Below are positions 26,053-26,336 of a DNA stretch of 64,000 bases, one piece after another. A model generated the notes under the pieces. That model was not told the DNA's origin and did not search any database. It saw only the letters and a list, made by a program, of their open reading frames with translations. A program made the translations under genes and the position numbers. How positions within the stretch are numbered: position 1 is the first letter of the stretch; the number at the start of each line of letters is the position of its first letter. This DNA comes from a bacterium (lineage in GTDB: Bacteria > Patescibacteriota > Minisyncoccia > Moranbacterales > GWC2-37-73): NCBI GenBank assembly GCA_003251635.1, contig QKEW01000008.1:33489-97488 (forward strand). The letters run 5' to 3'.

Positions 26053-26230
26053 ATTTCACAAAAAATAACTGCCCATTTTAATGGGCATTGATCAAGCATT
26101 GCGAAGCGCGTTTGGAAATTCCAATCAAGCGAGCGCTAAAAATTTATCTAGCTCGCCAAAGGCGAGGTCTTAAATTTTAGTGAGCTAGATTAGGAATTTC
26201 AACAGCGCGAGTCATGCTTGCGCTTCCCTG

Positions 26231-26262
26231 TCTGCCGACAGGCAGGTTTTGTAACTTTTCTT
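26231..26262 (+). terminator. Intrinsic terminator-like hairpin plus T-tract; it ends a candidate ncRNA
   Basis: TCTGCC-GACA-GGCAGG stem followed by TTTTGTAACTTTTCTT. It lies about 180 nt downstream of the nrnA stop, between convergent genes. Confidence 0.45.
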
Positions 26263-26336
26263 GGCGTTAAGAAAAGTTAATAAAAATAATTCAAAAAAAA
26301 TTTTAAATTATTGAGTTTGCGACCACTAATTCAGAT

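Follow-up and report, generated by a model that had tools for sequence, protein, structure and literature searches.

The 284-nt spacer at positions 26053-26336 of the window (the whole 64-kb stretch of DNA analysed here) separates an NrnA-like DHH phosphoesterase gene from a convergent metallophosphoesterase gene. A preliminary description of this DNA had proposed that the spacer encodes a noncoding RNA (ncRNA), either 6S-like or novel. We found that positions 26092-26279 hold, on the + strand, what we take, with confidence a little above even, to be one copy of a dispersed, non-coding, strand-specific structured repeat that serves as a terminator or 3′-end structure. The family unit is ~185 nt long and comprises a ~135-nt imperfect rod hairpin, a U-run, and a polypyrimidine/polypurine hairpin (hp2). 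To judge from sequence comparison, from which we also infer its function and mode of spread, the repeat is previously uncatalogued and specific to Moranbacteria-like genomes of the candidate phyla radiation (CPR).

The spacer carries one copy of a covarying repeat family

The spacer has a minimum free energy (MFE) of -93.3 kcal/mol, compared with -61.2 ± 4.4 kcal/mol for 200 dinucleotide shuffles, none of which was as good (z -7.3); for its minus strand z was -6.9. The statement that the spacer is highly structured was thus borne out.

Among 40 relatives, the spacers 3′ of the DHH gene range from overlapping genes to 586 nt, with patchy BLAST similarity. The longer spacers of loci L015, L016, L023, and L027 have in common a motif, GAGCGTTAAAAATTT...AAATTTAGCGAG, that lies within a hairpin of ~130 nt, and a regular-expression search found more copies on the other strand of the L015 spacer and at unrelated positions in L028 and L032. 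RNAalifold gave a consensus of 34 pairs for an eight-sequence alignment (A2), with double compensatory changes in 23 of them. A strict IUPAC pattern derived from A2 was used to scan a metagenome collection and located the element in at least 120 stretches; the pattern requires spacings of 11-12 and 13 nt, and the window variant (12 and 14 nt) would escape it. A covariance model, R1, gave 105 matches at E < 1e-3 in 80 loci listed among these stretches, and it scores the window copy at 95.2 bits. A second model, R2, was built from metagenome copies only, with the window left out, and it finds window positions 26092-26224 at 72.7 bits (E 6e-16) as its sole match in 64 kb. Neither R1 nor R2, run with filters off, finds a further copy in the window.

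Covariation, which the preliminary description had named as a check, is very strong across the homologues. In 102 distinct copies pairing holds in 92.6% of alignment cells, compared with 72.3% for shuffled and at most 50% for slid controls, and 28 of the 34 base pairs show changes on both sides. The sequences are related by descent, and the shuffle controls therefore overstate significance. The consensus is a near-continuous rod of seven helices with only small internal loops and bulges between them. Its base and apex vary freely: variability peaks in the basal-stem pairs (columns 10-29 with 176-193), each of which shows 26-54 double changes. The invariant pairs lie mid-stem (columns 31-35, 62, and 69-73), where the invariant part consists of AAAUU/AAUUU, the GAG loop, a C-G pair, and an AAAUUU/AAAUUU helix with an AA bulge.

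Several contigs hold two to three copies, with up to three within 6-10 kb and a local density of one per 3-5 kb, and several copies lie at contig ends. Many copies form head-to-head inverted pairs 30-60 nt apart. These pairs join two different rod subtypes with their 5′ ends facing, often with TTTTTTAGCG-like sequence between them (for example L015 5085-5221 on the - strand and 5276-5408 on the + strand; also L084, L114, L122, L130, L135, L137, L157, and L160). Some inverted pairs lie between convergent genes, each copy converging on the nearer gene. A looser pattern picked out 25 stretches in viral contigs, for which the best model matches have E 0.018 (20.9 bits) and E 0.086; with only such weak matches, an origin from phage was rejected.

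The fold is a property of one strand

In the stem positions of the alignment, G-U combinations outnumber A-C combinations by 137 to 41. We also compared, independently of any alignment, the MFE of each rod with that of its reverse complement. The sense strand was the lower in 99 of 105 copies (mean 6.9 kcal/mol, Wilcoxon p 6e-17), and the window rod follows suit, with -53.5 for the sense and -45.7 for the antisense strand. This preference was seen in every gene context, including 22 of 22 copies whose two neighbouring genes are both on the opposite strand. The fold thus belongs to one strand, be it as RNA or as single-stranded DNA (ssDNA). It may have been selected in place or inherited from source copies; the data fit both.

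Copies lie between genes and are gained and lost

All copies are intergenic on a crude map of open reading frames (ORFs), and the element contains no ORF and keeps no fixed partner gene. Flanking it are housekeeping genes of various kinds (a DNA polymerase III delta-like gene, holA, in nine loci, and genes for DHH, RNase J, ComEC, TrpRS, and AP endonuclease proteins), and the 133 immediate neighbours include no recurrent transposase, integrase, or reverse transcriptase. When both neighbours could be scored (61 copies), 19 copies lay in convergent spacers, 23 in tandem spacers antisense to both genes, 16 in tandem spacers sense to both genes, and three in divergent spacers. The commonest arrangement, in 60 of 89 scorable copies, has a convergent downstream gene with its stop codon facing the element's 3′ end, often 40-120 nt from it (112 nt in the window). 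A polar, terminator-like insert would, after selection, be expected to show this distribution.

Where a copy is sense to a tandem gene pair, the downstream gene is preceded by an extended -10-like sequence (TGCTAAAAT, TGCTAGAAT) right 3′ of the unit. Downstream genes begin ~6 nt after TGCTAAAAT, TGCTAGAAT, or TAAAAT (L023 4233-4297, L027 5190-5291, L016 ~1480-1520, L149 500-557), which suggests leaderless or near-leaderless mRNAs downstream of the unit, and possibly a promoter that the unit's 3′ edge carries or that evolved there.

The element is gained and lost at orthologous intergenic sites. The nearest relatives (72-75% identity of the DHH protein; L001 and L201-L204) lack it 3′ of the DHH gene and have only simple terminators there, including L203 and L204, in which the DHH and metallophosphoesterase genes converge as in the window. 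After the DHH gene, L027 is filled whereas L024 has an unrelated AT-rich spacer, with flanks 85-87% identical. In L149 a 365-nt mosaic (in order, antisense hp2, palindrome, rod remnant, and sense rod with two hp2) separates a stop codon from an ATG, and the same stop and ATG are 3-4 nt apart in L150 and L031; another L149 copy is absent at the orthologous L085 site. Comparison of the L149 junctions with L150 and L031 revealed no clear direct repeat that would mark a target-site duplication, the insert being a composite of two units, and no such duplication was evident at the filled and empty sites compared.

Because the element is absent from syntenic relatives and multi-copy elsewhere, it is a dispersed repeat and not a housekeeping RNA. 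The preliminary description had held that absence from relatives would count against its RNA, and by that measure the closest relatives, with the same synteny and no element, do count against it, while more than 100 copies exist elsewhere. Of its "novel RNA" there remains a structured, covarying, RNA-like element of the + strand that is absent from Rfam; the ncRNA gene unique to this locus does not.

Modules of the window copy

The window copy has the complete layout, with a REP-like GC palindrome nested between rod and U-run. Its features and those of its flanks are as follows.

26060-26087, - strand: probable terminator, with hairpin 26070-26087 and T-run 26069-26060 (terminator scan)
26092-26224, + strand: rod, the defining module, a ~135-nt imperfect hairpin (covariance models, covariation)
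26093-26099 with 26214-26220: basal stem of the rod, CAAGCAT with ATGCTTG
26116-26122 with 26193-26199: conserved helix of the rod, AAATTCC with GGAATTT
26131-26133 opposite 26183: conserved internal loop of the rod, GAG opposite A
26134-26139 with 26177-26182: rod helix CGCTAA with TTAGTG, followed by the AA bulge at 26140-26141
Upper rod: helix AAATTTA with TAAATTT, then the variable apex, with CTCGCC-AAA-GGCGAG at 26152-26166
26227-26250, + strand: module P, optional, GC palindrome CCTGTCTG-CCGA-CAGGCAGG plus TTTT (terminator scan)
26251-26279, + strand: module H (hp2), TAACTTTTCTT-GGCGTT-AAGAAAAGTTA, an 11-bp polypyrimidine/polypurine hairpin
26280-26336: AT-rich tail reaching to the convergent gene's stop codon, with a weak AT hairpin AATAATTCAAAA/TTTTAAATTATT at 26285-26312 (inverted-repeat search)

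Two of the modules 3′ of the rod are near-constant in the family: a T-rich run (at least 7 T in 10 nt) follows the rod immediately in 86 of 96 copies, and hp2 (CTTTYCTT..AAGRAAAG) lies at most 90 nt from the rod end in 93 of 96. The general form of hp2 is (G)YYACTTTTCTT-loop-AAGAAAAGTRR(C), sometimes in two to three tandem copies; in the 64-kb window it is found once. Beyond hp2 the flanks of other copies diverge, and the AT-rich tail is not conserved in the family.

The palindrome of module P occupies 26227-26246 and its TTTT 26247-26250. It is REP-like, with consensus CCTGCCTGCCGGCAGGCAGG, and its T:G pair 26231:26242 is a G-U wobble on the + strand only. Within or beside the unit, CCTGCCTGCCGGCAGGCAGG occurs in nine of 96 family copies. 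A second, perfect 20-nt CCTGCCTGCCGGCAGGCAGG palindrome lies at 51895-51914, 20 nt from tRNA-Leu(tag), and the palindrome is also present in the relatives' loci L003, L010, L017, and L041; it may represent a separate family of short Moranbacteria repeats.

A terminator scan of the spacer gave two sites in all, one per strand. The + strand site is CCTGTCTG-CCGA-CAGGCAGG at 26227-26246, followed by TTTTG; the terminator-like hairpin that had been placed at 26231-26262 lies at this position, and 26252-26279 forms a hairpin of its own, with 11 bp. The - strand site is TGCCCATT-AAAA-TGGGCA plus GTTATTTTTT at 26087-26070. The stems quoted earlier were all present where they had been placed: the TGCCCATT-TT-AATGGGCA hairpin is 26070-26087, TTGGAA-A-TTCCAA is 26112-26124, and ATCTAGCTC (26146-26154) pairs with GAGCTAGAT (26182-26190) around CTCGCC-AAA-GGCGAG (26152-26166). 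The last of these, although present in the window, is not the pairing that the family conserves; the 3′ arm of homologues finds its partner further out, with AATCAAGC pairing to GCTAGATT and CGCTAA to TTAGTG. The hairpin at 26070-26087 has its T-run (GTTATTTTTT) on the minus strand and is therefore a minus-strand terminator; 26060-26087, beyond the element, probably serves the convergent metallophosphoesterase transcript as its intrinsic terminator. Among ~100 copies whose flanks were inspected, many resemble the window in that a canonical terminator hairpin precedes the rod by 20-40 nt, and the 26070-26087 hairpin belongs to this layout shared by the family.

Just upstream of many rods of the TCAAGCC/TTCAGCC subtype lie tandem heptamers (AGTATTT, TGTATTT, or CGTATTT, up to ~8 copies), and the motif TTTGCATTT(T)A is likewise found there. 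Examples are L154 ~2000-2070 (element strand), L146, L138, L023, and L032.

Gene neighbourhood of the window copy

The host of the window is a Candidatus Moranbacteria (CPR/Patescibacteria). Homologues of the protein encoded at 25093-26052 are almost all from Moranbacteria metagenome-assembled genomes (MAGs). The protein database holds no relative more than 80% identical to the window genome; the next best DHH protein is 75% identical. The genes around the spacer are listed here.

22948-24732, + strand: infB (IF-2), upstream of the DHH gene
24729-25061, + strand: rbfA (RbfA), upstream of the DHH gene
25093-26052, + strand: NrnA-like DHH/DHHA1 phosphoesterase (Pfam DHH 2.3e-15, DHHA1 4.6e-10; Moranbacteria homologues are named NrnA/MgpA)
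26053-26336: spacer of 284 nt between the convergent genes
26337-27101, - strand: calcineurin-like metallophosphoesterase, convergent (Pfam Metallophos 1.2e-8)
27225-28637, + strand: PP2C phosphatase
28652-29476, + strand: ORF of 274 amino acids, whose counterparts in relatives have an AP_endonuc_2 domain

The DHH gene is the final gene of an infB-rbfA-nrnA run, and its transcript would enter the sense copy of the element. Gene order 3′ of nrnA is fluid among Moranbacteria (window 22948-29476 compared with L201-L204). The convergent metallophosphoesterase gene is present in the window, L203, and L204 and absent in L201 and L202; the PP2C gene is found in the window only; and the AP endonuclease gene follows in the window and in all of L201-L204 except L202, where the next gene (290 amino acids) has no Pfam record.

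Two descriptions of the spacer needed tempering. The GC enrichment ascribed to it is modest: the core (26100-26249) has a GC fraction of 0.47 and the whole spacer 0.37, with a window average of 0.38 and 0.24-0.29 in other spacers. To call it unusually long is fair, but its length is not extreme, as it ranks ninth of 73 gaps on a crude ORF map (median 59 nt), and several of the longer gaps contain tRNAs or introns. That it has no convincing ORF was upheld, the only ORFs inside it having at most 30 codons.

The longest gap in the crude ORF map is 745-1372 (628 nt, GC 0.43), which lies between divergent genes and has no Rfam match at gathering thresholds. Elsewhere in the window, two full-length group I intron matches (48762-48977, - strand, 83.6 bits; 49470-49710, - strand, 86.9 bits) lie in a tRNA-rich stretch with tRNA-Gly(gcc) at 48548-48622, tRNA-Val(tac) at 49776-49851, and tRNA-Leu(gag) at 50127-50211. 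ARAGORN called no host tRNA around either intron, and the two introns may interrupt tRNA genes that the tools miss.

A proposed mechanism and its alternatives

We propose that the sense transcript would fold into the rod, and that the GC-rich base of the rod (in the window, the added palindrome) together with the U-run would act as an intrinsic terminator and protect the 3′ end. In the window, the infB-rbfA-nrnA transcript would have the sense copy as its 3′ end and stop near 26250, and the convergent metallophosphoesterase transcript would cross the antisense copy and stop at a terminator of its own (26087-26060); the outcome would be convergent 3′ untranslated regions (UTRs) overlapping by ~180 nt. 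Such terminator action would explain why copies seem to be tolerated at gene ends, within operons only in antisense, and kept out of divergent promoter spacers. As the element fits between genes that are otherwise 3 nt apart, it probably redraws the boundaries of transcription units. The invariant core (AAAUUC/GAAUUU, the GAG loop, CGYUAA/UUAGYG, and the AA bulge) is probably a protein recognition site, used for spread or for RNA processing, and the invariant loop and the obligatory hp2 likewise suggest a protein partner for mobilisation or processing.

Several points weigh against a terminator or 3′-end structure. Transcription of the sense strand is something that we infer from sequence features. 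A 55-bp rod, an invariant asymmetric loop, and an obligatory hp2 that lacks a U-run far exceed what termination needs, and termination accounts for neither the loop nor hp2. About 47% of copies lack an upstream gene in the same orientation, and for these a pure 3′-UTR or terminator role leaves the sense fold unexplained, unless it was inherited, as it may have been. The single copy in the 64-kb window means that the element behaves like a single-copy locus in the window genome. As for the data, the metagenome sample was drawn by a strict sequence pattern, the large alignment was fitted to a model, and the gene contexts rest on a crude longest-ORF map.

We think it unlikely that the copies instead constitute a multi-copy family of independently transcribed small RNAs (sRNAs). 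In the window such an RNA would be driven by a weak promoter directly upstream, start at the rod base near 26090, and end at the U-run near 26250 or after hp2. Its action would be in trans; it might, for example, use the conserved loop to titrate a protein, or base-pair with antisense copies that lie within other genes' 3′ UTRs. A sense fold that is favoured in all contexts, including the 22 copies between opposite-strand genes, would suit an sRNA, as would the terminator-like end and the rod-base subtypes with matching hp2, which recur across contigs and co-occur within one contig. The promoter signals are weak. A relaxed -10-like sequence, TAWAA[TA], ends at most 12 nt upstream of the rod in ~28% of copies, ~3x background, with no -35 found, and in the window TTCACA-16 nt-TTTAAT (26055-26082) could place a start near 26089. 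However, ~100 copies show no excess of strict -10 hexamers ahead of the rod and no consistent -35/-10 arrangement there, and the -10 candidate of the window, which is without the key A in its second position, went uncalled in the scan. Moreover, many copies lie just 20-40 nt past another terminator, no long conserved single-stranded seed is present, and the local density, the inverted pairs, the truncated remnants, and the fast turnover are more like repeats than like regulated genes.

An element that works at the DNA level, without a role as RNA, appears just as doubtful to us as an sRNA family. It would be either an ssDNA hairpin used by a recombinase or transposase in the manner of IS200/IS605, REP/RAYT, or attC, or a non-autonomous retroelement copied from a terminated transcript, and the conservation of structure would then reflect the needs of mobilisation. 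Presence/absence polymorphism and mosaic or truncated copies are consistent with this, and so is strand asymmetry regardless of gene context, since G-T pairs are tolerated in ssDNA hairpins too; the invariant asymmetric loop and bulge are reminiscent of features by which proteins recognise folded DNA sites, and some copies have a REP-like palindrome nested in them. Yet none of the three enzyme types sought recurs beside the copies, target-site duplications and conserved termini were not seen (the ends are the most variable part), attC R″/R′ core sites were absent by inspection, and in the viral contigs no copies were found, only the weak matches noted above. The T-run after the rod and the scarcity of copies in divergent spacers suggest instead that the element affects transcription. 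A 6S-like or other housekeeping ncRNA, or an ordinary terminator pair with chance stems, is very improbable. The length of ~160-190 nt, rod-like fold, position between convergent genes, and terminator hairpins on both strands would be in keeping with it, but chance is excluded by the z of -7.3 and the E of 6e-16 to an independent model, and a housekeeping RNA is effectively refuted by an element that is missing in the nearest relatives, is multi-copy elsewhere, lacks a central bubble, and has no 6S, SRP, RNase P, or tmRNA match in Rfam at E ≤ 10.

More speculatively, and with a probability that we put somewhat below that of the sRNA family or the DNA-level element, the rods could be functional, strand-specifically expressed RNAs that also propagate. 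In one version they may be a non-autonomous, SINE-like element, copied via an ssDNA hairpin or via a terminated transcript of its own, a putative CPR enzyme recognising the invariant loop. In another, sense rods may pair with antisense copies in housekeeping 3′ UTRs (those of holA and, here, of the metallophosphoesterase gene) in a sense/antisense network, which, if true, would couple mRNA stabilities through RNase III. CPR/Patescibacteria genomes are tiny and tightly packed, and to our knowledge these organisms have almost no classical regulators, and almost nothing is known of their noncoding RNA and repeat content. Whichever reading holds, this is a well-supported structured element without an Rfam family, with more than 100 copies, 28 of 34 pairs covarying, and a strand-specific fold. 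It is worth modelling, and masking or annotating in Moranbacteria MAGs, because it will otherwise be flagged repeatedly as a "novel ncRNA gene". It can also break assemblies, and RNA with the invariant loop offers a bait for a CPR-specific RNA- or DNA-binding partner.

Comparison with known RNA classes and named repeats

An Rfam scan of the whole window at gathering thresholds found nothing in the spacer. The cmscan that the preliminary description had recommended, run over 25950-26450 at E ≤ 10, gave six chance-level matches only; none was to 6S, SRP, RNase P, or tmRNA, in agreement with the earlier statement that motifs of the last three are absent. The matches to IR_84 and rliB (E 0.09-0.2) fall by chance on parts that are AT-rich or belong to terminators. 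Scanned at gathering thresholds, 14 copy-bearing loci contained no family except tRNA, and no description of the element was found in the literature on CPR repeats or ncRNA motifs.

This E ≤ 10 scan and the consensus structure rule out 6S, SRP, RNase P, and tmRNA. Some copies end in GGGTGGCCAC or GGGTGG, which raised the possibility of a T-box; neither the spacer nor the 14 loci has an Rfam match to one, the downstream genes are diverse or convergent, and an aminoacyl-tRNA synthetase context is lacking. By inspection, the GAG/AG loop lacks tandem G-A pairs in the strand order that a K-turn requires, and the stem base lacks the RYYYAAC/GTTRRRY boxes of an integron attC site, the flanks being housekeeping genes. 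GAGCG resembles domain V of group II introns only superficially: the strand that carries the bulge is the wrong one, the hairpin has ~60 nt, and Rfam gave no match.

6S RNA has a large central bubble, resembling an open promoter, between closing and terminal stems, and occurs in one or two copies per genome. The element resembles it in overall length and in its largely double-stranded rod shape. It differs in having no central bubble and no Rfam match, in being absent from relatives, and in being multi-copy in other genomes, so the suggestion of a 6S-like RNA, which would call for a conserved single-copy gene, fails.

Among small dispersed repeats, REPs are GC-rich palindromes of 20-40 nt. The nested 20-nt palindrome CCTGCCTGCCGGCAGGCAGG (26227-26246, 51895-51914), the mosaics, and the alternating orientation recall REPs and BIMEs, whereas the rod, at ~135 nt and with conserved loops, is longer and more complex than a REP. 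The defining marks of miniature inverted-repeat transposable elements (MITEs) are terminal inverted repeats that are conserved and duplications of the target site (TA for the ERIC type). Like a MITE, the element is dispersed, has a ~135-nt rod, and shows filled and empty orthologous sites; unlike one, it has termini that are its most variable, covarying part, a conserved core in mid-stem, and no visible duplication, and no cognate transposase family recurs among its 133 immediate neighbours. The ERIC, Correia (CREE), and RUP MITEs are imperfect palindromes of ~100-160 bp with many intergenic copies in either orientation; they are transcribed into long hairpin RNAs, can affect flanking genes, and vary in presence or absence between relatives (PMC3184786). 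The same review names a terminator-like dispersed repeat, SPRITE (PMC3184786). Compared by behaviour only, the element is similar to SPRITE in being a small non-coding intergenic repeat dispersed at gene ends, with a GC-based hairpin and then a U-run: a GC-rich stem is followed by a U-run in the window (26227-26246 and TTTTG) and in 86 of 96 copies, and copies lie at gene ends, with few in divergent spacers (3/61, crude ORF calls). It differs from SPRITE in its ~185-nt length, 55-bp rod with an invariant asymmetric loop, obligatory hp2, and CPR host. Because the conserved termini of MITEs are lacking, no target duplication was seen, the element is far larger than REPs, and every test for 6S RNA failed, we conclude that it is a new family among the small dispersed intergenic hairpin repeats and a member of no named family.

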